32,000 bases of DNA from the NCBI RefSeq assembly GCF_000012545.1, contig NC_007681.1, positions 270,001-302,000 on the forward strand, in the 5' to 3' direction. The number at the start of each line of letters is the position of its first letter. The first letter of the stretch is position 1. Positions 204-29,529 of this stretch are shown here, one piece after another. The DNA is from Methanosphaera stadtmanae DSM 3091. Its GTDB lineage: Archaea; Methanobacteriota; Methanobacteria; Methanobacteriales; Methanobacteriaceae. The position numbers and the translations under genes are program-made. The notes beneath the pieces were generated by a model. It saw nothing but the letters and a program-made list of their open reading frames with translations, made no database searches and had not been told where the DNA came from.

Positions 204-1517
204 ATGAAAATTGGGATTGTACTTGGAACTAGACCTGAAATAATTAAAATGGCGCCTGTAATTGATGAAATAAAAAGAAATAATTCTGAATTAGTTCTCA
301 TACACACAGGACAACATTATGATATTAACATGTCAAAACAATTTTTTATTGACCTGGATTTACCCTTACCTCAATATAATATTGGTATAGGCTCAAATAC
401 TGCTATTAAACAAATAAGTATCATCATATCAAAACTTGAAGAAATACTAAAAAAGGAAGAAGTTGACATAGTATTAGTTCAAGGAGACACAAATGCAGTA
501 TTAGCAGGAGCATTAGCTGCAAATAAACTTAAAATTCCTGTAGGACATGTGGAGGCAGGACTAAGATCATTTGATAAGAACATGCCCGAAGAAATAAATA
601 GATTGGTTGCAGATAGTTGTTCTACACTCTACTTTGTACCAACAAAGGAAACTGGAATAAATCTATTAAATGAGGGAATCAGTCATAAATCAATCTATGT
701 TACAGGTAATACTGTGGTAGATGCATGTAAAAGAAACATAAATCTTGCACTTAAAAATAGTAAGATAAAAGATGAAATAAAATTCAATAATTACATAGCA
801 CTAACACTACACAGAGCAGAAAATGTGGATGATGATGAAAGACTAATAAACATAGTTAATAGTCTTATTAATTTACCATATAACATAGTATTTCCAATAC
901 ACCCACATACAAGAAAATCTCTTGAAAAACTAGATTTATACAAGAAAATTGAAGAATCAGAACATATTCAAATAATAAAACCATTAGGATATCTTGACTT
1001 CCTATATTTAATATCACAAGCTACCCTAGCACTAACAGATTCTGGTGGAGTACAAGAAGAAGCAATAACACTTGATGTTCCATGTGTTACATTAAGATAT
1101 AATACAGAAAGACCAGAAACAATTACATGTGGTGGAAATGTACTTGCAGGAACAGAATCAGAGGAGATTACAAGAAATATTAGCAACATACTAAATAATG
1201 AATCAGTATATGAAAGTATGAGCAGTGCTAAAAATCCATATGGTGATGGAGACAGTGCAAAACAAATATATTCAATAATAGAAGAACATTACAATGAAAA
1301 CAACCTTAAAATAACTCGTGCAGATAAGATAATGGACTTTGAAGGATACTATATGTATGTTATTCAAGAGAATATTACAGTAGCAGAATATGAAAATAAA
1401 AATAAGGGACAAATCATTGAACAAGTATTTACTAATGGAAGGCCAGAATATATAGAAGAACAATTAAATCTAGAAAATAAAACAATTATAGTAAAAAAAT
1501 TTGAAAATGAAGATTAA
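204..1517 (+). CDS. wecB: UDP-N-acetylglucosamine 2-epimerase (non-hydrolysing) with a ~70-aa C-terminal extension
   Basis: MKIGIVLGTRPEIIKMAPV..., HTGQHYD, VQGDTN, HVEAGLRS, LTDSGGVQEEA and NPYGDG are classic WecB/MnaA signatures. I prefer the ATG at 204 over the GTG at 195 because the family normally starts MKI..GTRPE. Confidence 0.85.
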   Translation: MKIGIVLGTRPEIIKMAPVIDEIKRNNSELVLIHTGQHYDINMSKQFFIDLDLPLPQYNIGIGSNTAIKQISIIISKLEEILKKEEVDIVLVQGDTNAVLAGALAANKLKIPVGHVEAGLRSFDKNMPEEINRLVADSCSTLYFVPTKETGINLLNEGISHKSIYVTGNTVVDACKRNINLALKNSKIKDEIKFNNYIALTLHRAENVDDDERLINIVNSLINLPYNIVFPIHPHTRKSLEKLDLYKKIEESEHIQIIKPLGYLDFLYLISQATLALTDSGGVQEEAITLDVPCVTLRYNTERPETITCGGNVLAGTESEEITRNISNILNNESVYESMSSAKNPYGDGDSAKQIYSIIEEHYNENNLKITRADKIMDFEGYYMYVIQENITVAEYENKNKGQIIEQVFTNGRPEYIEEQLNLENKTIIVKKFENED

Positions 1518-1583
1518 ATACTTTCTTTTTTCATCTTTTAAAAAAACTATTAGATAATGTTGAAATATTATTAAGGATAATTA

Positions 1584-2753
1584 TTAAGACTTAGATTTAT
1601 TTTCAATATAATCTAATATATCTTCAGAGGATTTTTTTAAAGTAATACTTCTTTTCTTTTGTTTAGAACTTTGTTGTATTAAATATAAGTTATTATATTG
1701 ATTATTTAATTTTTTGAATAAAATATTTATGTCCTGGTTTATTTTGGATAAATTTTCAGTTTCTTCTTGAATCATTTTTAAATTTATAAATTCATATAAA
1801 GAATTTGATTTTAAAATTAAATTAAACTTTTGCAGAGTCATCATAGGTATTTTTTTCTTTATTTCATCATTTAGAAATTTCTTTTCTATTATTCTAAATT
1901 CAATTTTTGCTTTTTGAAAGTATTCCTCAGATGAGGCTGGTATTAAATAAGCAAGAATTTGATTTATTTTAAATAAAATGAATTCATCTATAAATTCTTC
2001 AAAAAGATTTTCTTTTCTTAAGATTTCTTCAACTAATTTACAGATTTTAAAAATAAATTTACCATGGATTGGATCATTTGAATTTGAATTAGGATTATAT
2101 CTATACCTATATAAGAATTTAGGTACGTATGATATTCTTTTTGCTCTTAACATACTTTTTACATGGAAGGGAACATCTTCAAAAGCAGGGACAGAATCAA
2201 ATATAAAATCATCATAACTATCTAGAAATTCTTTTCTATATAATTTAGTCCATGGTGCAAAAGATGCATTTAAAACATAGTATTTAGTATCATGGTAATT
2301 GAAAACAAAATTATTAAAATCCTTGTTAGGAAATATGTCTTCTAATTTAAAACCTGGTCTACTATAATCTATTTCATCTGTATCTTCTCTAAATCGAGCA
2401 ATTTTTAATAAAACAAAATCAGAATTATTTAATGTAATGTTTTCATATAATTCATATAGTGTATTTTCTACAATATAATCATCAGGATCAAAAAAATATA
2501 TGTAGTCTCCACTAGCCTCATTTAATCCAATATTTCTAGTAACTCCTGTACCTTCATTTTTTTTATCTATAATTTTGATTCTATTGTCTTTTTTAGCAAA
2601 TTTATTTAATATTTCTAAGGAATTATCTGTAGATCCATCATTTATGCAAATTACTTCAATATCTTTTAATGTTTGGTTGAGAACACTCTTAAGAGATTCT
2701 TCAAGAAAATTTGCTATGTTGTATATGGGAAGTATAACTGAAATTTTAACCAT
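1584..2753 (-). CDS. Family 2 glycosyltransferase with C-terminal coiled-coil tail
   Basis: MVKISVILPIYN...ESLKSVLNQTLKDIEVICINDGSTD...YIYFFDPDD is a GT2 (GT-A, DxD) signature. I prefer the start at 2753 (ATG preceded by GGTGA) over 2843. The longer ORF reads through the A17 tract as KKKKK. Confidence 0.85.
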   Translation of the reverse strand: MVKISVILPIYNIANFLEESLKSVLNQTLKDIEVICINDGSTDNSLEILNKFAKKDNRIKIIDKKNEGTGVTRNIGLNEASGDYIYFFDPDDYIVENTLYELYENITLNNSDFVLLKIARFREDTDEIDYSRPGFKLEDIFPNKDFNNFVFNYHDTKYYVLNASFAPWTKLYRKEFLDSYDDFIFDSVPAFEDVPFHVKSMLRAKRISYVPKFLYRYRYNPNSNSNDPIHGKFIFKICKLVEEILRKENLFEEFIDEFILFKINQILAYLIPASSEEYFQKAKIEFRIIEKKFLNDEIKKKIPMMTLQKFNLILKSNSLYEFINLKMIQEETENLSKINQDINILFKKLNNQYNNLYLIQQSSKQKKRSITLKKSSEDILDYIENKSKS

Positions 2754-2793
2754 AAATTCACCTATTCTGTATAGTTTTAGTTTACTACTTAAA

Positions 2794-2810
2794 TTTTTTT
2801 TTTTTTTTTT
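2794..2810. repeat. 17-nt homopolymer (T17 on +, A17 on the coding strand), ~41 nt upstream of the GT2 start codon
   Basis: Read directly from the sequence: aaa + 17 t + gaataaa at 2791-2817. It lies in the 122-bp gap between the stop of the 629-aa gene (2876) and the GT2 ATG (2753). Confidence 0.95.
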
Positions 2811-2875
2811 GAATAAATAATTAATGAAAAAATATAATATCAAAAAAATAATAATAGTTGTTAAATATCAATTAT

Positions 2876-4765
2876 TTATTTAAGAAATGTTAATTCTTTT
2901 AATAATTCTTTTTTAGTTTTTATATTATATTTATTATGTCTATTTGGTTTTCTACCTTCATAGAATCCATGACAAATGTAATGTGTTTCTGGATTTAAAA
3001 GTTTTAACCATTTTATCCGTGATAGGTCTTTGTTTTCACTTAGGTAATATCCTACATTGAACCATGGATTATTTTTTAAAAGAGAATATATTTCCAAATC
3101 CTGGTTTTTATCTGATGATTTAAGTAATATATACACATATGTAAAGAAATCATTAAATATTCGTTTTAAGATACTTGAATTATTTTTATAATAGGTTATT
3201 TCCATGTTTTTATCATTGATAATTTTCTTTTTTTCATCAAGGTCATTGAATGATTTTTTAAGTATTTCATGTATTTCTTCATTTTCTTTAATTATATTAT
3301 CAGATATTTTAGTCTTGTTTTTTATTTCATCATATTTTTTATTTAAATCAGAATATTTTTTATTTATCTTATTAACATTAAGTTTTTCTATTTCTGAACG
3401 ATTTAGCCAATATAATCTCTGTTTATATAATGTTTCAGAAACATTATTCAAAGAAGTTAATCTGGATTTAAAGTAATTTTCATAATCTTTATGTTTCATA
3501 TTAGTCTTATTTAGATAATCTTTTAAATCAGGAAGTTTATCTTGAATTATTTGATGTAATACATCTTCTGATGATTTATAATCATTTAAATATGATTTGT
3601 ATGGTAATTTGAATTTATCCATAGAACTATCTTCTTCACATATGGCCCAAATATCACTTCCACTACCTAAATAATCAGCTAGTTTTGAAGGTAAATATGG
3701 ATTAATTTTAAAATCTTTTTTTGTAGGAGTATCATTAACAATCAAAATATCTAGTTTTGTAGATAAATTTAGGAATTCCAGTAGAGATACTTGGTTGTTA
3801 ATAATAATACTTTCTGAAATGGATAAATCACTTATTAAATTTTTGATAAAGTTTGCATTTGATGTGAAAAAGTGAATTCTAATTCTCTTTTTAATTTTAG
3901 GATGTAATTTTTCAAAAGCATAAAACAGGTATTCTAAATGTCTTTTACCAACATATGTACCAAAATATCCAAAGTTTATAAAATTATTATCAATATTATA
4001 ATCAGATTCTTTCACATGATAATATTTTTTGGGTAGTATGGGGTGGTGTTTTACCTCGGATTTTTCCATTACAAAATTTTTTATATTATATGGAAACTCT
4101 GATAACATGATTTCTCGTTGATTATGGTTGGTAAATCTAATTTTATCTGCAAAGACATATGGTAAATATTCACCAAGTAAATATAATCCATCATCTGGGT
4201 TAATATGAGGTAAATCTTCTTTTAAATCAATGGATTTATTATTATTGATGGTATCAATCGTTTTGTTAATTTTTTCTAGAAATACTTGATTGTGTATAAC
4301 TGAATTTGATGGACGTACCTTATTATTTAAATCATAGAGTAATGGATCTGAAAATTCAGCAGTCCAACAAACATTTGGATGTTTTAATTTATATTCTAAT
4401 GCTAAAAAATGTGAATCAATAGTCCAAGATCTACTTGTAATATTTTTGTACTCATAGTCTACCTTCTCAATTTCAATCATGGCCTCTTTAGTAAATTGGA
4501 TTATATCATCTAATGCAATGGGAATAGCTGTTTTTTCTAAGTAAATTCTTTTATTTATATATTTTTCTATAAGATTATTGAAATCATAATCATATTTAAC
4601 ATTACTATTTAGTTTAATTTGAAAGGTATCTACTTTTTTATTAGCTTCCATAATTCTTTTAGATAGTACAATTCCACTAACATCATTCATAGGAGGAAAT
4701 CTAGATGTAATTATTAAATCTTCACAAATATTTGAGGTATTCTTTTCAGTATTTTTATTTTTCAT
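2876..4765 (-). CDS. Hypothetical protein, probably polysaccharide-biosynthesis associated (unknown N-terminal domain + coiled coil + NP..H...G..EGR tail motif)
   Basis: A 629-aa ORF packed 11 bp downstream of the double-GT2 gene on the same strand. The C-terminus, NPWFNVGYYLSENKDL...LNPETHYICHGFYEGRKPN, resembles a motif seen in glycan-modifying enzymes. I do not recognise a catalytic family. Confidence 0.6.
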   Translation of the reverse strand: MKNKNTEKNTSNICEDLIITSRFPPMNDVSGIVLSKRIMEANKKVDTFQIKLNSNVKYDYDFNNLIEKYINKRIYLEKTAIPIALDDIIQFTKEAMIEIEKVDYEYKNITSRSWTIDSHFLALEYKLKHPNVCWTAEFSDPLLYDLNNKVRPSNSVIHNQVFLEKINKTIDTINNNKSIDLKEDLPHINPDDGLYLLGEYLPYVFADKIRFTNHNQREIMLSEFPYNIKNFVMEKSEVKHHPILPKKYYHVKESDYNIDNNFINFGYFGTYVGKRHLEYLFYAFEKLHPKIKKRIRIHFFTSNANFIKNLISDLSISESIIINNQVSLLEFLNLSTKLDILIVNDTPTKKDFKINPYLPSKLADYLGSGSDIWAICEEDSSMDKFKLPYKSYLNDYKSSEDVLHQIIQDKLPDLKDYLNKTNMKHKDYENYFKSRLTSLNNVSETLYKQRLYWLNRSEIEKLNVNKINKKYSDLNKKYDEIKNKTKISDNIIKENEEIHEILKKSFNDLDEKKKIINDKNMEITYYKNNSSILKRIFNDFFTYVYILLKSSDKNQDLEIYSLLKNNPWFNVGYYLSENKDLSRIKWLKLLNPETHYICHGFYEGRKPNRHNKYNIKTKKELLKELTFLK

Positions 4766-4776
4766 ATTATCACAGT

Positions 4777-7524
4777 TTATTTTTCATCAGAATATTTTTC
4801 TAAGTAGTCTAATTCAACATAACTCCTTGATTTTAAGGTTCTTAAATAAAATAATTTGTTAGGTTCATTTAAATTATTTAACATAAGAGAATCAATTTTT
4901 TTATCTTCATGTAATTTTTGAAAATCATCATGCATTAAATCCCAAAAAGTATTTTTATATTTTTCTTCCATCATATGATACCATTGGGAGATATAATTTA
5001 TTTTATAATTAGTTAATTGGTATTTATACATATTAACTAAATTCAATTCTTTGAAAATACTAATTACTTTATTACTTATGGGTATTACATCAAAGTATTT
5101 ATTATCATATTCAGAAGTTATAGATGATGTATGTCTACTGCGTAAATAAAAATGTTTTTTTAATAACGACATTCTTTTAGCTTGCAACATCACACCCCAA
5201 AAGAAGGGATTATCTTCAAAAAGAAGTTTTTCAGCAAAGTGGACTTTTTTTACTAAACTTCTTTTATATATCTTCTGACATGCACTTATTGATATACTGA
5301 ATATAATGTTAGAAATATCTTCATGTGAGAAAACTTTATTTTCAAAATCATCAGGAATAGGTGTTAAATTGTAGTAACTATCCTCATAATATTCACCAGT
5401 TTCTTCTGAATAATTTTTCATTAAGAATAATAAAATGTCTAAATCATTTAATTTAACTTTTTTATATAATTCTTCACATGTATTTAAGTCTATCCAGTCA
5501 TCAGAATCAAGAAACATAATATATTCTCCAGTAGCCATTTTTATAGCTTTATTTCTAGCTACTCCGGGACCACTATTTTTTTGTGTAAAAAATTTAAATC
5601 TATGATCCTTATTTGCATATTTTCTAAATACATCTAAAGTATTATCTGTAGATCCATCATCAGCACAAATTATTTCAATATTTTTTAATGTTTGATTTTT
5701 TACACTATTTAAACATCTTTTTAGATATTCCTCTCTATTGTATGCACAGATAATGATGGATATTTTTGGTGTGTTAGATTTTTTATTTGAATTATTATTT
5801 TGCATCTGTTCAAATTCAATTTTTTTAAGTGTTATGTCTTCATCTATTTTAATTAATCTTTTTTCATACTCCTTTTGATTTTTTTCTAAATTATTTGTTA
5901 TTTTATTAAGATTATCAACGTATTTCACATGTTTTTGATCTATTTTTTCTTCCTGAACTTTTAATTTTTCTTGTAGTTGTATAATATTAGTTTCTTTATC
6001 TTCCAAGTGTTTAATTTTTTCATTCAGGAGTTCTTTTTCTGTTTCTAATTCCTTGAATTTTGTATTTATGGAACTTTCTTTTTTAATTAATTCTTTTTCT
6101 AGGTTATTGTATTTTTCTATTTTATTATCTAGTTTCTTTTCTTTATTGTCTAGGTTTTCTTGTAATTGTGTGATGCGTGTTTCTTTATCTTCCAAGTGTT
6201 TAATTTTTTCATTCAGGAGTTCTTTTTCTGTTTCTAATTCCTTGAATTTTGTATTTATGGAACTTTCTTTTTTAATTAATTCTTTTTCTAGGTTATTGTA
6301 TTTTTCTATTTTATTATCTAGTTTCTTTTCTTTATTGTCTAGGTTTTCTTGTAATTGTGTGATGCGTGTTTCTTTATCTTTTAAGTTTGCTTCTTTTATC
6401 TGTATAGTAATTTCCCTATTATTTTGATTTTTTTCATTTATTTTCATTTGTTTTTTCTCGTTATCTAGTTTTGTTTTTAGGTTATTTATTTTATTTTCCT
6501 TGTTATTTAATTTTTCAGTCCATTTACTTAGATTACCATTTATAAAATTGAGTTTTTGTTGTTTTTCATCTAGTTTTTCATTGATTTTAGTAAATGTCAT
6601 GTTTAAATTAAATTGGTTAAAATCTTGTGACTTAAGACAATTTTTATAGAATTTAAGATTTTCTTCATTTAATTCATGTAAAAAAGCATCACATAATTTT
6701 TTATTTTGACTTAAATTGATTAAATCTTCTTTCATTAAATTAAAATAATCATTTTTATCTTTAATTTTAGTATAACCTTTTTTTAAAAAGTATATTTTGA
6801 AATTAAGTAATAATTTTTTATAAGTATTGAACATATCATATTTTTTAAATATATTTAATATTAATGTGCTAATTTGAATCATATCTAGTAATTCATTAGA
6901 GGAATATTCAGATTTCATGTTTAATGCAGGTTCTCTTAATAGGATTGAAACATGTTTTGCTGTTAAAAAAGTCTCTAATAGAAATGGTTTGTCTTCGAAA
7001 GATAACATTGTTGGGAATCTTATTTTATATGTATCTAATAAATTCCTACGATATAAATTACCTTTTAAAGTATTACTTAAATAAAATATACTCTTATTCA
7101 TATCTTGAAAATTAAACACATTCTCACACATATTTTTAGATAAAGAATAATCCTTAATTTTTTCATAAGATACTGAAATTAATAGATCTAAATCTTCATT
7201 TTTTGCTTTTTTATAAAGTTTTTCCATAAAATTAAAATCTATATCATCTGTAGAATCTATAAAGGTAATGAAGTCTCCTTGAGCAATATTTAAACTTTTA
7301 TTTTTTAAAAATCCATGGGATCTATTTTTTTCTGAAATAATTTTTAAATAGGCACCGTCATTTTTACAAAAATTTTCTAGTATTTTATTTGTATTTTTAT
7401 CTATTTTATCATAAACAAATATGACTTCAATATTTTCTAATAATTGATTCTTTATATTTTTTAAATATTGCTCAATATTTTTTTCAGTAGTTATGGAGAT
7501 AATTAATGTTATTTTAGGATTCAT
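4777..7524 (-). CDS. Bifunctional double-GT2 glycosyltransferase with a long central coiled coil
   Basis: N-terminal GT2 module: ITLIISITTEKN...IEVIFVYDK...FITFIDSTDD. C-terminal GT2 module: ISIIICAYNREEYLKRCLNSVKNQTLKNIEIICADDGSTD...YIMFLDSDD. About 280 aa of K/E/N/L-rich heptad-like sequence separates them. Confidence 0.85.
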   Translation of the reverse strand: MNPKITLIISITTEKNIEQYLKNIKNQLLENIEVIFVYDKIDKNTNKILENFCKNDGAYLKIISEKNRSHGFLKNKSLNIAQGDFITFIDSTDDIDFNFMEKLYKKAKNEDLDLLISVSYEKIKDYSLSKNMCENVFNFQDMNKSIFYLSNTLKGNLYRRNLLDTYKIRFPTMLSFEDKPFLLETFLTAKHVSILLREPALNMKSEYSSNELLDMIQISTLILNIFKKYDMFNTYKKLLLNFKIYFLKKGYTKIKDKNDYFNLMKEDLINLSQNKKLCDAFLHELNEENLKFYKNCLKSQDFNQFNLNMTFTKINEKLDEKQQKLNFINGNLSKWTEKLNNKENKINNLKTKLDNEKKQMKINEKNQNNREITIQIKEANLKDKETRITQLQENLDNKEKKLDNKIEKYNNLEKELIKKESSINTKFKELETEKELLNEKIKHLEDKETRITQLQENLDNKEKKLDNKIEKYNNLEKELIKKESSINTKFKELETEKELLNEKIKHLEDKETNIIQLQEKLKVQEEKIDQKHVKYVDNLNKITNNLEKNQKEYEKRLIKIDEDITLKKIEFEQMQNNNSNKKSNTPKISIIICAYNREEYLKRCLNSVKNQTLKNIEIICADDGSTDNTLDVFRKYANKDHRFKFFTQKNSGPGVARNKAIKMATGEYIMFLDSDDWIDLNTCEELYKKVKLNDLDILLFLMKNYSEETGEYYEDSYYNLTPIPDDFENKVFSHEDISNIIFSISISACQKIYKRSLVKKVHFAEKLLFEDNPFFWGVMLQAKRMSLLKKHFYLRSRHTSSITSEYDNKYFDVIPISNKVISIFKELNLVNMYKYQLTNYKINYISQWYHMMEEKYKNTFWDLMHDDFQKLHEDKKIDSLMLNNLNEPNKLFYLRTLKSRSYVELDYLEKYSDEK
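5991..6380. repeat. Perfect 189-bp tandem duplication (2 copies + 12-bp start of a third), in frame inside the double-GT2 coiled coil
   Basis: 5991-6179 and 6180-6368 look identical base for base by eye (for example ttccaagtgtttaattttttcattcaggag at 6001 and 6190). They encode DKETRITQLQENLDNKEKKLDNKIEKYNNLEKELIKKESSINTKFKELETEKELLNEKIKHLE twice. Confidence 0.95.
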
Positions 7525-7718
7525 TATATTAAGCCTCTTATAAAAATATTTTCCTTTAAGTATATATAAAGGATTAAAACTTTAAAAAAACATGAATATG
7601 TACTTATATTTTTAAATATATGTATACAAATATTTTTTTAGTTTTATATTCTATTTTTAAAGTTTTTTTTTACATGAGAGTATAAATTATTTTTTTTAAT
7701 TAGTTTCATTAAATAGAA

Positions 7719-8969
7719 TCATATATTTTTTTTCATTATCTCACGTAGTACTGCTGTTGCATAGCAGCCACGTGGAATAAAAAATTCCACATCTATACCA
7801 TCACATGTTTTTGTAACAGAGGTATCTTCTATTTTAAATCTAAGTGATCTTCTAATACCATGACTTCCAAGTTTTGGTGTTTTTGGACATTTAAATGATT
7901 CTTTTGTAATATTTTCTTCTTCTATAATTCTTTTTTCAATTTCTCCTTGTTTTCCTTCAGCATATGGTACCTTTGATCCATATAATGGTCCTGTAGGATT
8001 TAGTGTAAACTTATTCATATCATCTTCTATTGTATCTTCATCTATTTCATGAACCCAACGTTCTTCTTCATTTATGATTATGTCTCCTGGAAGATACTTG
8101 TTTATTCCTATTTTTGAACGTTCATTTACTACTTTGTTAAATAGGTATGATTCATATGCATTTACAAACATTCTTTTTAAGGGTTTTGGTAGTGATTCTA
8201 TTGCTCTGATATAATCTTTTTCAGTAATTTCACCATGTTTTTCTTTTGATAGTATTAATTCTTTAAGCATGGATTTTTCATATCTCATACTTTTTGGCAT
8301 AAGATCATATGATTCTTGTAATTTTCCTTCATCATATAATTGTCTTGCTTCAAAGGGTTGATTATGTTCATTTTTATTAGGATTTCCTATATATGTATCA
8401 ACTGCTTTTTTAATATCTCCTTCTACAAGACATTTACCAACAAGATGGGTTGTACTTCTAACTTCACCAAAGCGTTGAAAACCATAAAAATTAGGAACAC
8501 CAGTAACTTTTAATGATTCAAGAACATCTTCAGCAATATCTTTATCTTCTACAGGATTGTTAGTATTTTTTATATGTATTTTGAATTTATTACCCTTAAG
8601 TTGTCCCATTCTAAGTTTTTTCTGGTTTTGTTTAATATCTAAAACTTTAACATTATGTAATACTTCTTCAAAATCAGGTAATTCTTCTGGTGTAATGTTA
8701 CTAATACAAAGCCATTGTCTTGTAATAGCAGAACGATCCTTCATCCCGGCAAAACCTGTACGTTTACGACTAATATGAAGATATTTTGCCATATCAAGCA
8801 CCACATCAAGTGTTGTTCTACCTTCTTTTTCTATTTGTATCCATGTATTTGAACCATTGCCTGTTGGTAATTGGAGAGGTACCTCTTCAACATAAAAATC
8901 CTTATTTTCATTACGTATTGTTCCACCAATACCTTTATTGTCTGTTATAAAATTCTTAGCATTTAACAT
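7719..8969 (-). CDS. truD: tRNA pseudouridine synthase D (TruD/Pus7 family)
   Basis: Contains FYVEE, GFAGMKDRSAITRQW (catalytic-Asp GxKD motif), NFYGFQRFG and CYATAVLREI. The 416-aa length fits archaeal TruD. Confidence 0.85.
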   Translation of the reverse strand: MLNAKNFITDNKGIGGTIRNENKDFYVEEVPLQLPTGNGSNTWIQIEKEGRTTLDVVLDMAKYLHISRKRTGFAGMKDRSAITRQWLCISNITPEELPDFEEVLHNVKVLDIKQNQKKLRMGQLKGNKFKIHIKNTNNPVEDKDIAEDVLESLKVTGVPNFYGFQRFGEVRSTTHLVGKCLVEGDIKKAVDTYIGNPNKNEHNQPFEARQLYDEGKLQESYDLMPKSMRYEKSMLKELILSKEKHGEITEKDYIRAIESLPKPLKRMFVNAYESYLFNKVVNERSKIGINKYLPGDIIINEEERWVHEIDEDTIEDDMNKFTLNPTGPLYGSKVPYAEGKQGEIEKRIIEEENITKESFKCPKTPKLGSHGIRRSLRFKIEDTSVTKTCDGIDVEFFIPRGCYATAVLREIMKKNI

Positions 8970-13814: not shown

Positions 13815-15074
13815 TTATAACATTCCTTCAGATCTAATTAAATCAATGAATGTTTTTACTTCACCAGATTTTTTAGAATCTTTTGATTTTGGCTCTGTTT
13901 TTGCTTTTGATTGTTCTTTTTTAGGTTCTGTTTTCTGTGTTTCTTTTGGTTTTTCTGTTGTTGTATTATCCACTATTAGTCCTTGTTCTCTTAGTGTTTG
14001 TGTGAATGATTTTTGTGTATCTTGTGTTTCTGGTTGTTCTTTTTTAGTTTCTTTTTTAGTTTCTTTTTTAGGTTCTTTTTTAGGTTCTGTTTTCTGTGTT
14101 TCTTTTGGTTTTTCTGTTGTTGTATTATCCACTATTAATCCTTGTTCTCTTAGTGTTTGTGTGAATGATTTTTGTGTATCTTGTGTTTTTGGTTGTTCTT
14201 TTTTAGTTTCTTTTTGTACTTTCTGTGAAACTTTTTTCTCTGTATCTTTTATTGTTTTTTGTACCTGTTTTCCAACATCTTCTTTTATTTTATCAGTTGT
14301 TTGTTTTAGTTTTTGTGTTTCTTCAGTAGCAACTTTCACCACATCATCTACTATTAATCCTTGTTCTCTTAACACTTGTGTAAATGATTTTCCTGCATCT
14401 TTTATAGTTTTTGCAGCATCTTGTGTAACTTTTTTAGCTACTTCTTTTGCTTTTTGTTGTTCTTTTTTAGCTTCTTTTTGTTGTTTTACTTTTTCTTGTG
14501 TTTTCTGTGCAGATTTTTTAGCTTCATCTTTTACTTTTGTTACTGTTTTTTTAGCTTGTTTAGTAACTTTTTCAACTGTTTTTTTAGCTTGTTTTGTTAT
14601 TTTGTCTTGTGTTTTTTGTTCTTTTTTAGTTTCTTTTTGTTGTTCTTTTTTAGTTTCTGTTTTTTCTGAATCTTGTTTTAATTGTTCTGTTACTTTTTCT
14701 CTTGTTTTGTCAACTTCTTCTTTAAGTTTTTCTGTAGTTTCTTGTGCTTCTTGTTTTAATTTAGCTGCTTCTTCTTTAAGTTTCTTAGCTTCTTCTTTCT
14801 CCCGTTTTTCTTTGTTTTTTCTTATGATAATTTTTGATAATCCTGGAGTCACACGTCTTTTAAGTTCTATTCCTCCTTTTTGTATTAGTTTTATAGATTT
14901 TGGTGTATTATCTTTAGTTTCATCTTTTATAATTATTGGTATTTCATTATCCTGTGATTTAGGTTTTATTTGTGAATTATGAAGAACGTCTACTGATTTT
15001 GGATTTTGTTCTGATGCTTCTGGTACTTTTTTAACTTCTACTTCACTACTAAATTTAATTTTTTTATCACTCAT
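13815..15074 (-). CDS. Highly charged K/E/T/Q-rich repeat protein of unknown function, probably intrinsically disordered
   Basis: A 419-aa ORF apparently co-oriented in an operon with DUF126, with an RBS-like GAAGGGA upstream. It has low-complexity lysine/glutamate repeats plus four copies of an [KS][ST]F[TI][QD]xLR[ES][EQ]G[LM][IL] motif, the last at the extreme C-terminus. Confidence 0.7.
   Translation of the reverse strand: MSDKKIKFSSEVEVKKVPEASEQNPKSVDVLHNSQIKPKSQDNEIPIIIKDETKDNTPKSIKLIQKGGIELKRRVTPGLSKIIIRKNKEKREKEEAKKLKEEAAKLKQEAQETTEKLKEEVDKTREKVTEQLKQDSEKTETKKEQQKETKKEQKTQDKITKQAKKTVEKVTKQAKKTVTKVKDEAKKSAQKTQEKVKQQKEAKKEQQKAKEVAKKVTQDAAKTIKDAGKSFTQVLREQGLIVDDVVKVATEETQKLKQTTDKIKEDVGKQVQKTIKDTEKKVSQKVQKETKKEQPKTQDTQKSFTQTLREQGLIVDNTTTEKPKETQKTEPKKEPKKETKKETKKEQPETQDTQKSFTQTLREQGLIVDNTTTEKPKETQKTEPKKEQSKAKTEPKSKDSKKSGEVKTFIDLIRSEGML
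13914..14215. repeat. ~143-bp direct repeat, two copies at a 159-bp (53-codon) period, inside the K/E-rich CDS
   Basis: 13914-14056 versus 14073-14215 differ at 2 positions by eye (13979 g/a, 14029 c/t). They encode TQDTQKSFTQTLREQGLIVDNTTTEKPKETQKTEPKKE twice. Confidence 0.9.
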
Positions 15075-18299: not shown

Positions 18300-18410
<111 letters not shown>

Positions 18411-20288: not shown

Positions 20289-21818
20289 GTGGCTTTCCAG
20301 TTGCTGGGTCTTGAAAAAGTTTTGATCAAAAAAAAATTTGAAAATTTATTTGAAGACGTAAAAATTTATTTCTTATCTTAATTTTTATTAAAATAAGAAA
20401 ATAACGTTACACTTGAAATACACGACTCATCAAAATTCAACAAAAACTTTAATATAAAAAATAAGAATAATAAACTATTTATTATAGAAAAGGAATAGAT
20501 ATTAATATGAAAACCCAAATATCTAATTCCTTAAAGGATAATATGTCCTCAATAAAACTTAAACTTAACGATTTTGGTCTCAAAGATCCAATTAAAAAAA
20601 ATACTGAAGAACTCTTTAAAACTAAAAATACAAGACCTATCAACCAAGAATATGTTTATTTAAATGATAATCACTTTGAATATGATAACCCCACCTGTTC
20701 ACATTGTCACAAAAAACACGAAAAACATAAAGTTATTAAAAAAGGATTCCGAACAAGAAAAGTCAGAACAATAAATAAAACCAAAATAACAATATTTTTA
20801 AGACGTTATCAATGTAAAACATGTGGAAAAAAATTCCAAACAGAACTATCATGGCTATATGATAAAAATAAAAGATACACTAAACAATTTTTTGAATTGA
20901 TAGATAAAATAATGGAATTTAGAAATATACCATTATCTCTACTACAACATATAATAAACGTAGTTCTAAATACTAATATAAATCTTCAAACACTTGAATT
21001 TTGGATAAAAATAAAAAATAAATTCTCTAGAAACAAAGAATACTTAAAAATAGAACTAATTAAAGATAAAAACATGATAATCAATCATAACATCATTGGA
21101 TCAGGAATTTATAACTACGACGAACAATACATTAAAATCAACGGAAAAAAATACTATCGATTAACACTATACGACTACTCCAAAGACCAACCAATCGCAG
21201 AACAAATCATAAAGAAAGAATGGAATAAAAAATCACTCTCAAGCAAAACAATAGAAGAATTCATAAAAACAGCAACAAAAGAACGACCATTCAAAGCACT
21301 AATAACAGACGGAAAAAAACAATACAACGAAATAGCAAAAAAACTACGTGTACAACACCAAACATGCATATTCCACGCAATAAAATACATAAAGGACGAA
21401 ACAAAAAAATACTTAAGATCAAAAACACTATTAACATTAGATAAAATGACAATTGCAAACCAAACATCACAAATATGCCAAATATATAGAGAATTAAGTC
21501 TTTATGATACATACAAAACACTAAATGAACTAAAAGACATAGAAAACCAACTATTAAAACCAATCAAAAAAATACTAAACACCACAGTAGAAAACAACAT
21601 AAACAAAATAATAACACACCACTTATACTCTGAAATACCAAGAACAAACAACGCAGTAGAACAATACTACAGAAACTCTTTACCAAAATCAAAGAAAAAC
21701 AAAAAAAGAACCATTGACGGTGTACTAACAACAATAGCAACTGAAATGATGAAAAAATTTAAAAATACAAAAGAAAAATAAATATTCAAAAATCAAGACC
21801 CGACAACTGGAAAGCCAC
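20289..21818 (+). mobile_element. Intact insertion sequence, 1530 bp, 26-bp imperfect terminal inverted repeats, 8-bp target-site duplication (organisation like ISM1 of Methanobrevibacter)
   Basis: IR-L at 20289-20314 is gtggctttccagttgCTgggtcttga. The reverse complement of IR-R at 21793-21818 is gtggctttccagttgTCgggtcttga, a 24/26 match. The direct repeat caattttc flanks both ends (20281-20288 and 21819-21826). A single transposase ORF lies inside. Confidence 0.85.
20507..21781 (+). CDS. DDE-type transposase with N-terminal C2C2 zinc finger
   Basis: CSHCHKK...x34...CKTCGKKF is a zinc-finger-like pair. The candidate catalytic region is YNYDEQYIKINGKKYY ... ALITDGKKQY ... NNAVEQYYRN, a D-D-E pattern reminiscent of the 'DE.YIK..G / TDg..Y / NN.vE' signature of IS6-like transposases. 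The strong A-rich coding strand differs from neighbouring genes. Confidence 0.8.
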   Translation: MKTQISNSLKDNMSSIKLKLNDFGLKDPIKKNTEELFKTKNTRPINQEYVYLNDNHFEYDNPTCSHCHKKHEKHKVIKKGFRTRKVRTINKTKITIFLRRYQCKTCGKKFQTELSWLYDKNKRYTKQFFELIDKIMEFRNIPLSLLQHIINVVLNTNINLQTLEFWIKIKNKFSRNKEYLKIELIKDKNMIINHNIIGSGIYNYDEQYIKINGKKYYRLTLYDYSKDQPIAEQIIKKEWNKKSLSSKTIEEFIKTATKERPFKALITDGKKQYNEIAKKLRVQHQTCIFHAIKYIKDETKKYLRSKTLLTLDKMTIANQTSQICQIYRELSLYDTYKTLNELKDIENQLLKPIKKILNTTVENNINKIITHHLYSEIPRTNNAVEQYYRNSLPKSKKNKKRTIDGVLTTIATEMMKKFKNTKEK

Positions 21819-25717: not shown

Positions 25718-25733
25718 AAGGAGGGTAATGGCA

Positions 25734-25919
25734 ATGGTTGTGACAGTTTATCAAGACAGATGTGATGGAGTAGAAGCATGTCCAAGAAATGGTGTGTGTA
25801 TGGAAGTATGTGCACTTGATGCTATTGAACATAAGGGTGATTCCATAATAATTACAGAGGATTGTACAAACTGTGGACTTTGTGTTATGAACTGTCCGAG
25901 GGGTGCATTGTCAAAGTAG
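25734..25919 (+). CDS. Small 8-Cys ferredoxin-like protein (paralog 2)
   Basis: MVVTVYQDRCDGVEACPRNGVCMEVCAL...CTNCGLCVMNCP has the same Cys spacing as paralog 1. The start could be 25728 or 25734. I prefer 25734 for its spacing from GGAGGG and the shared MVVT N-terminus. Confidence 0.7.
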   Translation: MVVTVYQDRCDGVEACPRNGVCMEVCALDAIEHKGDSIIITEDCTNCGLCVMNCPRGALSK

Positions 25920-25969
25920 GAAAATAAACTTCAATTATTTATACTTTCTTTTTTTTAAAATATAATTTC

Positions 25970-26179
25970 ATTTAGCCCCTTGATTTAAGTTTATATTAAT
26001 TATGAACTATACTCTTTCTATTTCTTAATATTTTTCTTAAAATTAGTTTTTTATAATAAGCTTTTAAATCCATTAATATGTCCTCTTGACTATTTTAAAA
26101 ATAAGAAAGAAATAAAAATGATAAACTCAACAAAAAAGATAAAGACAGCATTACAACAGTTAAGTTAACAATGTTCTAT
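25970..26179. repeat. Left arm of a long imperfect inverted repeat (IR-L, ~210 bp)
   Basis: By hand alignment, atttagccccttGatttaagtttatattaat... is the reverse complement of 28346-28132. The outer ~140 bp have about 11 substitutions. The inner ~70 bp are more diverged, with indels. Confidence 0.9.
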
Positions 26180-26475
26180 TAAATGAGCTATAGGTGCATT
26201 AAATCTAATATGTATTAAATCTAAATATAATTTCAATTCATTGTCAATATAATTTTTTGGTTAATATTTATAATGTATAGATAACATATTTATATTTATG
26301 TTTCTTTTATTTAATTTAAATAAAATCATATCAATTAATTACTAATTAAAATATTTTTAAAAATTAAATTTTTATTAATTTTTATTTTAAAATATTTCAG
26401 TTCATATAATTTTTTTTGGATTTTTATATTTTTGAAACATTTTTTTAAAATTAGATAGGATGTTTAGTAGATAAT

Positions 26476-27168
26476 ATGAATAATAATTTTATATTTTCAT
26501 GTTTTTTTGTCATGTTATTATTATTATTATGCTTTTGTTTTTCACCAATTTATGCATATAGTGAAAATGATTCTTCTAGTATAGATTATACTGATTATAA
26601 TCAGATTAGTGAAGTAAATAATGAATATGGATTCTAATCATATAAATGATTATTCACCAAATTATCATAATTTAAATAAAAGATTTACATCTTTAGAATT
26701 AGATAAGTGTGTTAATTACTCTAAATTAGATGATAATAAGCATTCTGAAAATATGATTCAATAGTAGCTATACCTTCATCAGATTTATTTACAAAATCTT
26801 TTACAAACATACCTTTTTTAAGTGGTAGAATGATTGAAAAATGTAGTGAAGAATCCTATAAATATACAATGAAAGTATTTAAGGTAATATTTGATTATGA
26901 TACTGTAGAAGAAATATTTAAAGAAGTACCTAAAAAGATAATAAAAACATTATTTACAGTAGAAATATCTAAGTTAATACTTGTAAATCAATTAGTTAAA
27001 AATTACTTTGATGATTTAATAAAAATGGAAGCAATACATATGATGAATTACACTTTATTTCTATTACGGAAAACATATGGTATGAATTTAACATATTTAG
27101 ACTTGACATATGTAGCTAATACAAAAACAAATCAGACAAGGATAAGTGAATATTATGCAACAGTATAA
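26476..27168 (+). pseudogene. Possible disrupted gene for a secreted protein (three overlapping ORF fragments)
   Basis: Fragment A (26476-26637) is MNNNFIFSCFFVMLLLLLCFCFSPIYAYSEND..., which is signal-peptide-like. Fragment B is open at 26618-26764 in the +1 frame. Fragment C is open at 26749-27168, back in fragment A's frame, and contains the 112-aa track ORF. The end-to-end overlaps are what two compensating frameshifts would produce. In such AT-rich DNA this is suggestive, not proof. Confidence 0.3.
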
Positions 27169-27191
27169 AAAAAATATAATGAGGTGAAAAA

Positions 27192-27980
27192 ATGTGGTGG
27201 TATTATTATTGGTTTGTATTTATGACTATAATTTTAATAATATTTCAAATTTCGGATTGGAATGGTAAATTATATTCTATTTTAGGGGTGCAGAAAAATG
27301 TATATTATAATGGAGAATATAGTTCTTTAAGGACTGGAAAATCACAAGGAGTTCTTCTTATTATTTTTGGTTTTATAGTCTTGGGTTATACTGTACCTCT
27401 TCTTAGAGATACAATGGAATTTGCAAAAATGTTCACTATGAGTGTATGGCCAATGACATTTATAATATTTTATGTGGGATGTATTGAATTATTACGTCCT
27501 CATACCTTTGGAGAAGAATCACGATGTGATGTTCCATGTGATGATTATGCAAAAGATGCTCTACTAGAGAAAAGCATGCCTTTATCTTATACAGAACTAC
27601 TTTTAAAAGCAGAAGCATCACTTCTTATGGGAAGTCCAGTGCATTTTGGTCTGACAATAATAAATCCATTTAACTTTCCAACAATAGTATTAATTATACT
27701 CTGGGCAATATATATAGCAGTATTATTAGCATTTACATTTATGGATAAAATTAATGAATATTTATCAAAACATGAAGAAAAAATACTTAATTTTTTATGT
27801 CCTAATGGAGAATATGATAAATTTGATATTAGATATCCACCAGGATATTATTCGTATCTGCTATGTGCATATATACTTCCACTAGTACCAATGTTAATAA
27901 CACTAGGCACAATGTTAATATGGACTGATTATTTTTATACAGGAGTTGTGTATAGGTTAATTCTTCCTTTGATATTATAA
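27192..27980 (+). CDS. Hypothetical polytopic membrane protein (262 aa, ~6 TM)
   Basis: A GAGGTGA RBS sits 5 nt before the ATG. There are several long hydrophobic segments (MWWYYYWFVFMTIILIIF, GVLLIIFGFIVLGYTV, TIVLIILWAIYIAVLLAFTF, LLCAYILPLVPMLITLGTMLIW). I recognise no family. Confidence 0.6.
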   Translation: MWWYYYWFVFMTIILIIFQISDWNGKLYSILGVQKNVYYNGEYSSLRTGKSQGVLLIIFGFIVLGYTVPLLRDTMEFAKMFTMSVWPMTFIIFYVGCIELLRPHTFGEESRCDVPCDDYAKDALLEKSMPLSYTELLLKAEASLLMGSPVHFGLTIINPFNFPTIVLIILWAIYIAVLLAFTFMDKINEYLSKHEEKILNFLCPNGEYDKFDIRYPPGYYSYLLCAYILPLVPMLITLGTMLIWTDYFYTGVVYRLILPLIL

Positions 27981-28131
27981 AGAAGGAAAAAACATTCTCC
28001 TTTTTTTATTTTTTTGTTTTAATTCTTTTATTTTTAAGTTTATTTTTTGATTGATTTTATTAAATGAGATAAATAGGATATTTTCAAATCTTTCTTGGTT
28101 TTTGTAATTATATAAGGGTATTAGTTCTTTG

Positions 28132-28346
28132 ATAGAGTATTGTTGATTTAACTGTTGTAGTGTCATATTGTCTTTTTTGTTGGGGTTATTGCTAGTTTTA
28201 TTTTTTCTTTCTTATTTTTAAAATAGTCAAGAAGATATGTTATTGGATTTAAAAACTTATTATAAAAAACTAATTTTAACAAAAATATTAAGAAATAAAA
28301 AGAGTATAGTTCTGGATTAATATAAACTTAAATTAAGGGGCTAAAT
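28132..28346. repeat. Right arm of the long imperfect inverted repeat (IR-R, ~215 bp)
   Basis: It is the reverse complement of 25970-26179 (see IR-L). It ends 92 bp from the purP stop codon. Confidence 0.9.
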
Positions 28347-28437
28347 TTCATTTTCAACTTACTAAAATTTAATATCCCATTACTCAAAAATAGCTTTTTT
28401 TTACTTCTAAAAAGGGAGGGGAGTGTAAATTGATAAA

Positions 28438-29529
28438 TTATGTTAATATAACATCAAGTTTATCAGTTTCTATAGCATTCTTAATTTCTCTTGAAATTCT
28501 ACGACCCATACTCATAACTTCTCCAAATTGGATATAGGAGTATGCAGATCCATTCATGAATGAATTAGTACCACCATCAATACGAGCACTCATTTCAAAA
28601 ATAACAATTTCTCTATCATCATTTACTAAACATTGTAAACAGAAAGGACCATTCATACCAGGTTTTACTAATTTTTTAGCAGTTTCTACTAATCTATCTC
28701 CATTTTCAAATACTTGTGGAAGGAGAGATTCTCTTATTACAACTGGATGATTTCCACTAACAACATATGATGGGCTAAGATTTGCTTCTATTTGGTCTTG
28801 TGCAGGAATTCTTACAATACCATCAATATTTGTTTCATATCTACTATCCATTCCTAAAACTTCAACTTCATCTTTTAGAGCAGAGTAGAAGTAATGTATA
28901 CAGAAGTTAGTACCACATACATATTCTTCAATATGTGCATCTTTAACATCACTATCTGTAATCCAATTTCTTTCTTTCATTTCCTGAATCTTATTTTGGA
29001 ATTCCTCATAACTAGAACATATGAAGTAACCCTGTCCACCTCTTGCACCAGGGAATTTTACCATAACTTCCTTGTTAATATCTTCTGGTTTATCAAATTT
29101 TCTTGGCATTCTAATACCAGATTGTGTAATCATTTTTCTTTCCTTGTCACGTTCTGCTTCCCAACGTAGTATATCACGGTTTCCAAACATTGGAACGTTG
29201 AATTTATCTTCAACATTACTAAGACCAGCATATGCAACAAAAGATCCATGAGGTACAACAATAGCATTCATTGCTCTTAATTTATCCTGTACATCACTAT
29301 TTACAATATCTTTATATTCATCTACAAATATAAATTCATCAGCTACACCAAATCGTTCATATGGAACTTCTTTTCCTTTTTCACATACAACTGCTGTTCT
29401 AAATCCTTCTTGTTTTGCACCACGAAGGATGTGTAATGCAGTGTGACTTCCAAGAGTTGCTATGGTAATGTTACTTTTATCATATTTTTCTACAATATCC
29501 ATTATATCTTCTTTTTTAACTTTTCCCAT
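28438..29529 (-). CDS. purP: FAICAR synthetase (5-formaminoimidazole-4-carboxamide ribonucleotide synthetase, archaeal PurP)
   Basis: ITIATLGSHTALHILRGAKQEGF, VVPHGSFVAY, PMFGNRDILRWE, VKFPGARGGQGYF, HIEEYVCGTNFCIHYFYS, NHPVVIRESLLPQVFE, GPFCLQ and FEMSARIDGGTN. By recollection it is collinear with the Methanocaldococcus PurP family. Confidence 0.9.
   Translation of the reverse strand: MGKVKKEDIMDIVEKYDKSNITIATLGSHTALHILRGAKQEGFRTAVVCEKGKEVPYERFGVADEFIFVDEYKDIVNSDVQDKLRAMNAIVVPHGSFVAYAGLSNVEDKFNVPMFGNRDILRWEAERDKERKMITQSGIRMPRKFDKPEDINKEVMVKFPGARGGQGYFICSSYEEFQNKIQEMKERNWITDSDVKDAHIEEYVCGTNFCIHYFYSALKDEVEVLGMDSRYETNIDGIVRIPAQDQIEANLSPSYVVSGNHPVVIRESLLPQVFENGDRLVETAKKLVKPGMNGPFCLQCLVNDDREIVIFEMSARIDGGTNSFMNGSAYSYIQFGEVMSMGRRISREIKNAIETDKLDVILT

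Follow-up and report, generated by a model that had tools for sequence, protein, structure and literature searches.

Long inverted repeats around a decayed surface-protein module in Methanosphaera stadtmanae, possible relic ends of a single cargo-only insertion

A 32,000-nucleotide stretch of the Methanosphaera stadtmanae DSM 3091 genome (assembly GCF_000012545.1, contig NC_007681.1, positions 270,001 to 302,000 of the forward strand; hereafter the window, in whose numbering coordinates are given) contains two long inverted repeats that bracket a short cassette between a ferredoxin gene and purP. What are these repeats, how did they come to lie there, and do they still move or switch the DNA between them? 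An earlier interpretation made without database searches (below, the sequence-only reading) had offered three explanations: a segment that flips by homologous recombination between the arms, a non-autonomous element with long terminal repeats, or an inverted duplication of an intergenic module. We compared the locus across strains and related species. The view that we favor, tentatively and stopping short of calling it probable, is that the structure represents the relic ends of a one-off, cargo-only insertion with unusually long terminal inverted repeats, which is now fixed, immobile and decaying, and whose arms have been partly homogenized by gene conversion.

The two arms, each defined by repeat scan, MAFFT and BLASTN, are:

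25970-26183, plus strand: left inverted repeat (IR-L), the left arm, 214 bp
28128-28346, minus strand: right inverted repeat (IR-R), the right arm, 219 bp, 'long' allele

Within the window, BLASTN aligned 25970-26183 with 28346-28128 at 85.0% identity over 220 columns with 3 gap openings (E = 1.6e-66), showing that the reverse-complement arms seen by eye are real. A gapless repeat scan returned a 199-nt pair at 82% identity (25970-26168 and 28148-28346) and an offset inner pair (26124-26183 and 28128-28187); the two arms form the sole inverted repeat longer than 60 nt in the window. We also aligned the arms to one another by MAFFT and counted 11-12 differences in the outer ~145 nt, close to the ~11 previously given for the outer ~140 bp, and found the inner ~70 bp to be more diverged and to contain indels, again as described. 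IR-L is kept at 97-100% across strains. The outer and inner ends of an arm align with a local score of 9, a background level, in agreement with the statement that the arms lack terminal inverted repeats of their own. Terminal inverted repeats bounding the whole unit are present in the form of the 214- and 219-bp arms.

The same junction in related species bears on how the arms arose. In the window, the arms lie between the 3' ends of two convergent genes:

25728-25919, plus strand: second of two small 2x[4Fe-4S] ferredoxins, left flank, convergent on purP (Pfam Fer4)
28438-29529, minus strand: purP, formate-dependent FAICAR synthetase, right flank (DUF1246 + DUF1297)

Exact-sequence matches link purP to database entry ABC56656.1, NrpR to ABC56651.1, and the 262-aa protein encoded in the cassette to ABC56655.1. 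From a metagenome scan with purP, we obtained Methanosphaera-like loci in which purP is 90-93% and NrpR 62-71% identical. Wherever these loci reach far enough, purP is faced directly by one or more convergent ferredoxin genes (in one case by NrpR) at a distance of 96-355 bp, or 100-355 bp counting ferredoxin alone, and we found no arms, giant gene or membrane gene (the two cargo genes described below) within 10 kb. IR-L begins 50-51 bp past the ferredoxin stop (end of the open reading frame (ORF) at 25919) and IR-R ends 91-92 bp short of the purP stop codon (28438-40), matching the distances given before; together, the 51 bp on the left and the 92 bp on the right make up an ordinary spacer length. 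When aligned with the relatives' spacers, this reconstructed spacer outscores shuffled sequence (z 6.1 and 4.2 for the two best). The empty ferredoxin-purP junction that the sequence-only reading had suggested looking for is thus found in the other Methanosphaera species sampled, and the arms and their cargo are therefore a lineage-specific insertion. We detected no homology to the arms in the relatives' spacers and on this ground reject derivation of the arms from the local spacer. The same absence counts against, without refuting, an inverted duplication of a local intergenic module.

For comparisons within the species, we recovered ~45 independent metagenome contigs via the flanking proteins (individual loci are given by L numbers). 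Across strains, the outer edges of the arms are sharp and identical at 25 left and 28 right junctions, and the left outer flank, AAAATATAATTTCA, is the same in 25 loci. The window carries a short direct repeat at these edges:

25966-25970, no strand assigned: TTTCA, left direct-repeat copy, candidate target-site duplication (read from the sequence)
28346-28350, no strand assigned: TTTCA, right direct-repeat copy (read from the sequence)

The direct repeat ranges from 3 to 7 bp with the choice of terminus: placing the start of the inverted repeat at ATTTAGCCCC gives 3 bp, and letting the match run into the terminus gives 7 bp. For 5 bp in AT-rich DNA, we estimate the probability of a chance match at ~0.005-0.02, and consider the duplication suggestive and not decisive.

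What did the inserted unit carry? Between the arms, the window contains:

26184-26475, plus strand: AT-rich leader upstream of the giant gene, 13-15% G+C (composition, strain comparison)
26476-26758, plus strand: N-terminal remnant of a giant adhesin-like gene, residues 1-93 including the signal peptide (tblastn of the 2,372-aa L003 protein, nucleotide alignment)
26752-27168, plus strand: C-terminal remnant of the giant gene, residues 2234-2372 (alignment to the intact gene)
27192-27980, plus strand: 262-aa polytopic membrane protein of an orphan family (no Pfam or NCBIfam match)
27981-28127, no strand assigned: spacer with T-runs after the membrane-protein gene (strain comparison)

In several of these contigs (L003, L010, L023, L024, L113 and L117-L119), the arms enclose an intact gene encoding a protein of 2,371-2,372 aa. 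The AT-rich leader, correctly recognized from composition alone, is unchanged upstream of the intact gene. The giant protein contains a papain-family protease domain (Pfam PF00112) and is described as secreted and adhesin-like. It has no close orthologue elsewhere, the next best match showing 36% identity over 16% of its length; its nearest homologues have only the protease-lectin part in common, occur in different contexts and are not accompanied by long inverted repeats. The window aligns with both ends of the intact gene and lacks its middle, so that DSM 3091 retains only residues 1-93 and 2234-2372. The junction of this ~6.4-kb deletion is marked by 7-bp microhomology at 26752-26758, and a 2-bp deletion near 26623/26624 parts residues 1-47 from residues 48-93. 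These two deletions therefore explain the 'broken signal-peptide ORF' of the sequence-only reading, which is in three pieces as proposed but occupies two reading frames, not three.

The window carries one of three deletion alleles of the giant gene in the population (allele 1; the three span 774-7194, 616-7055 and 827-7147 in L003 coordinates), each with short microhomology at its junction. The independent deletions, of ~6.3-6.4 kb, are seen on aligning L003 496-7614 with window 26476-27168, and also with L006, L009 and others. By our arithmetic from the coordinates, two of the three are in-frame; intact copies remain in other strains.

The 262-aa membrane-protein gene is always found 24-25 bp downstream of the giant gene. 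Its product had been assigned to no known family, and with no Pfam or NCBIfam match it is indeed an orphan; its relatives fall into 4 clusters in a set of 5.8e9 proteins and 5 representatives in one of 1.84e9. The structure prediction proposed for this protein was run from a 4-sequence alignment and returned a mean predicted local distance difference test (pLDDT) score of 50.5, so no fold search followed. Distant homologues sit on contigs of 0.9-1.9 kb, too short to give gene context. In another species (L022), a homologue of the membrane-protein gene again follows the C-terminal part of a giant protein, at 40-44% identity, and the two genes therefore form a module. The cassette in the window is the decayed remnant of an ~8.4-kb two-gene surface-protein module. 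In a few strains, the 262-aa gene is also disrupted. In L114 (positions 6958-8325 of an OPERA hybrid contig), unrelated DNA encoding a glycosyltransferase and ribose-5-phosphate isomerase is joined inside the gene at the equivalent of window position 27229, producing a 455-aa fusion ORF that reflects either a scaffolding chimera or a real rearrangement.

The absence of any recombinase or transposase in the cassette, asserted from the ORFs alone, was borne out by a Pfam scan; Pfam and NCBIfam scans of the cassette ORFs and of the intact 2,372-aa gene likewise gave passenger genes only. Insertion sequences (ISs) do occur at the locus in other strains, one of them at a defined point within the left arm:

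26055-26059, no strand assigned: AATAA inside IR-L, point of IS insertion and 5-bp duplication in other strains (strain comparison)

At this point, five contigs (L002, L010, L016, L023 and L116) carry an 824-bp degraded DDE_Tnp_1 IS flanked by the duplicated AATAA, and three (L006, L008 and L027) carry a 189-bp deletion, 26060-26248, whose left breakpoint is the same AATAA. In L014 and L018, copies of an ISM1-like IS lie just left of IR-L. These IS copies are secondary insertions. IR-R varies as well: a short allele in other strains lacks 28049-28192 through deletion between 14-bp direct repeats, and the long allele of the window is the older of the two, because its similarity to IR-L extends further inward. 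L025 (11184-11557), L026 and L120 add more length variants of IR-R; one of these contains a partial internal duplication of arm positions ~97-149 and is ~155 bp longer, and another is only 79% identical to IR-L. Since insertion, then, the unit has kept one site, one orientation and identical edges in all strains, and it is eroding through three independent giant-gene deletions, a frameshift, ISs in and beside IR-L, and deletions in IR-R.

Taken together, the empty site, the sharp edges, the TTTCA repeat and the lack of an internal transposase make the second of the proposed explanations, a non-autonomous element with long terminal repeats, the best fit, although neither a second copy nor an autonomous partner was found. 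Under this model, a single ancient insertion would have entered the terminator spacer between the convergent ferredoxin gene and purP. The intact unit, ~8.9 kb, would have comprised the gene for the 2,372-aa secreted, papain-domain adhesin-like protein and that for its 262-aa membrane partner, with no mobility gene. It may have entered as a cargo-only, non-autonomous unit whose repeat ends were recognized by a transposase acting in trans, the staggered cut of which would have left the short TTTCA duplication. The unit being single-copy and no partner transposase having been found, its mobility is an inference. Should the transposon reading be right, the arm termini, TTTAGCCCCTTGATTTAAG..., would serve as a search handle for the mobilizing element.

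Several points weigh against this model. TTTCA, being short and AT-rich, is weak evidence for a target duplication. No scan found a second copy of the arm, and no partner element with matching ends occurs among the IS types at the locus. To our knowledge, terminal repeats of 215 bp are far longer than those of any known prokaryotic DDE element. The empty site was compared by gene order, spacer length and spacer alignment in lineages none of which is a close sister. Finally, the same structure could be expected if repair or replication had generated an inverted duplication when the module was acquired. In that alternative, the module would have arrived by lateral transfer or illegitimate recombination, and an error of replication or repair, such as template switching or fold-back priming, would then have copied one end, the region upstream of the giant gene, in inverted form to the other; TTTCA would be microhomology or chance, and gene conversion would have homogenized the repeat. 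Such an origin would fit a single-copy structure with no transposase partner found, the 1-7 bp microhomologies typical of deletion junctions at this locus, the documented gene conversion (below) and the continuity of the arm with the giant-gene leader. Against it, both outer edges are equally sharp, the flanks together have the length of an undisturbed spacer, and a direct repeat lies at both outer edges, as a staggered cut would predict; nor is there any trace of a longer palindromic duplication. We consider it unlikely, while giving it real weight.

Our searches for further copies bear on the nature of the arms themselves. Neither the rest of the window nor ~0.9 Mb of related loci gave a further significant match to the arms. 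The terminal 21-mer was absent from 185,579 species-representative genomes bar one chance match; that scan did not return the window's own arms, and therefore the source region is evidently masked there and the test is informative only for other species and for any unmasked part of the source genome. Three arm blocks were absent from IMG/VR, the arm gave no phage match and one weak 42-bp match to a Clostridium plasmid that we take as chance, and the 262-aa membrane protein had no phage match. On these results, we reject a virus or plasmid origin. We also reject the arms as miniature inverted-repeat transposable elements (MITEs), given that they have no terminal inverted repeats of their own, that no duplication surrounds a single arm, and that only two copies are known. 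The termini of the arms resemble the ends of neither IS type seen at the locus, the ISM1-like IS or the DDE_Tnp_1 remnant. We found no earlier description of the arms in the literature searched.

Could the arms instead belong to a dispersed family of short repeats (MITE-like, or solo IS ends), two members of which came to flank resident genes in inverted orientation, in the manner of a composite transposon? The locus is an IS hot spot, and within the source genome the direct copy search covered the window. Against such an arrangement, neither arm has its own terminal inverted repeats or flanking duplication, and no further copy was found in the window, in related loci or, for the terminal 21-mer, in species representatives. 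The cargo is also absent from the relatives' site; cargo and arms therefore arrived together. We regard a dispersed repeat as improbable.

To ask whether the unit still flips, we used probes just outside and just inside each arm in ~45 independent assemblies, which give majority orientation only, and among which some contig names suggest long-read or hybrid assembly. All 19 left and 30 right junctions were in the parental orientation (0/49 inverted), which gives no support to flipping by homologous recombination between the arms as a current activity. A working invertible element, in which a RadA-dependent crossover between the 215-bp arms would flip the surface-protein module and cause phase variation, has in its favor that the cargo encodes a variable surface protein and that the arms do recombine, by gene conversion in both directions. 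Yet no inverted junction appeared even among the presumed long-read and hybrid contigs, the mosaic arm alleles described below are non-reciprocal and are not footprints of double inversion, and both flanking genes end facing the arms, meaning that an inversion would alter no promoter-gene junction. Apart from the ISM1-like IS, no site-specific recombinase or invertase occurs among the ORFs of the window, nor does any appear in the flank gene tables. These observations leave such an element highly improbable.

Recombination between the arms is nonetheless visible in their sequences. Twelve sites distinguish the arms in the outer 145 nt, and most strains keep 10-12 differences; L001, L112 and L115 show only 1-2. 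Several right-arm alleles bear left-arm states in patches, and some left arms bear right-arm states. The patches are non-reciprocal and therefore reflect gene conversion rather than double inversion. An assembler artefact (bubble popping) is unlikely, as the same mosaics were seen in independent samples and travel with linked markers in the flanks. The arms thus exchange sequence by intrachromosomal gene conversion and stay partly alike, and their 85% identity therefore says little about the age of the repeat.

In a final set of alternatives, the arms would have been duplicated for a cis-acting function of their own, as a small RNA gene, paired terminators for the convergent genes or a dif-like site. 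T5-T6 runs do occur in the arms, read from the outside inward, and arm positions ~77-104 weakly resemble the Pyrococcus abyssi dif (PMC2958812). Against an RNA gene, a search of Rfam returned nothing for the arms even at E = 1, and shuffled sequences form more stable folds than either strand (z +1.32 and +1.51); we rejected this candidate. We set paired terminators aside, as terminator-like T-runs are already present outside the arms. The M. stadtmanae dif is reported to be 'surrounded by imperfect inverted repeats' and to lie ~180 degrees from oriC (PMC2958812). Each arm contains a dif-like motif on the complementary strand (26048-26076 and 28240-28268), AATGGATTTAA-AAGCTTA-TTATAAAAAAC, that agrees with the P. 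abyssi dif arms (PMC2958812) at 9/11 and 7/11 positions, which is statistically unconvincing. It takes 3 mismatches and a 7-nt spacer to obtain this match, and chance alone would give 2 of its kind per window. The motif coincides with the point of IS insertion and deletion start in other strains. We found no terminus-like features in the window. With a weak match confined to the arms and no signs of a terminus, we reject a dif site, though without full certainty. Relatives manage without the arms altogether, and overall we see only a very slight chance that the arms are such cis-elements.

Returning to the cargo-only insertion, which systems does it most resemble? Mobile insertion cassettes (MICs), such as MIC231 of Bacillus cereus, have ends of tens of bp that match a resident IS, and are usually multi-copy. 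In its apparent working, the unit resembles these: they share with it passenger genes without a transposase, inverted repeats, a short duplication and an empty site in relatives. It departs from them in two membership features, as its arms match no IS at the locus and it has one copy, and the arms are also far longer at ~215 bp. The composite transposons Tn5 and Tn10 likewise have long inverted arms around cargo and a direct repeat flanking the unit, whereas the arms here are non-coding, lack ends of their own and are not IS copies. Casposons and other archaeal long-terminal-repeat elements share the archaeal host, repeats of up to hundreds of bp and, as a candidate here, target duplication. 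The casposon target duplication is ~14-15 bp; the unit here has a candidate duplication of 5 bp, encodes neither Cas1 nor a polymerase, and carries a surface-protein module.

Two further comparisons concern exchange between the arms. At sap in Campylobacter fetus, too, a surface-protein locus is bracketed by long inverted repeats that undergo homologous exchange. The sap repeats are situated in the 5' ends of coding cassettes, and a promoter moves upon inversion, in contrast to the arms here, which are intergenic, would switch nothing and were seen in no inverted form. In tufA/tufB of Salmonella and in plastid inverted repeats, non-reciprocal patches occur between inverted copies and identity varies by lineage, as we observe, but those repeats are functional genes and these arms are non-coding and apparently functionless. 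We also considered a bolder reading, which we judge distinctly unlikely: that the arms are ends of an unrecognized archaeal cargo transposon (terminal inverted repeats of ~215 bp, a 5-bp duplication, no mobility gene, delivery of surface modules, and an autonomous partner in the Methanobacteriales), or that they mediate rare RadA-dependent flipping below detection by assembly.

In this way, a puzzling arrangement in the genome of the type strain of a methanogen common in the human gut is resolved, and the more useful result is a strain-variable giant surface protein. Adhesin-like proteins are leading candidates for the attachment of gut methanogens to partners and hosts. Many wild strains carry the giant surface protein, but the type strain, on which experiments are done, lacks it; this protein and its membrane partner were acquired as one block, and it has been lost repeatedly, through three independent deletions. 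In the arms, an archaeal population offers a natural case of gene conversion acting between inverted repeats that are non-coding.

Other features of the window are independent of these conclusions. The sole transposase-bearing element, the ISM1-like IS at 20289-21818, is unrelated to the cassette. It is an intact element of 1,530 bp with a 424-aa ORF at 20507-21781, 26-bp terminal inverted repeats (GTGGCTTTCCAGTTGCTGGGTCTTGA) and an 8-bp target duplication (CAATTTTC), and its family matches are only weak (ISL3/ISH6). It is absent from this site in other strains. The L014 and L018 copies beside IR-L are 99.4-99.7% identical to a copy in L002, which sits inside the giant gene. The element, with near-identical copies at several sites, therefore appears recently active. 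Elsewhere, Rfam predicts a tRNA of 109 nt at 18300-18408 (62 bits) where ARAGORN predicts none, presumably an intron-containing archaeal tRNA. At 13848-14703, a 12-nt-periodic repeat array lies inside overlapping ORFs of 419 and 378 aa with no Pfam match, and at 5920-6297 a 189-bp tandem duplication, 87% identical, lies inside a gene for a 915-aa glycosyltransferase.

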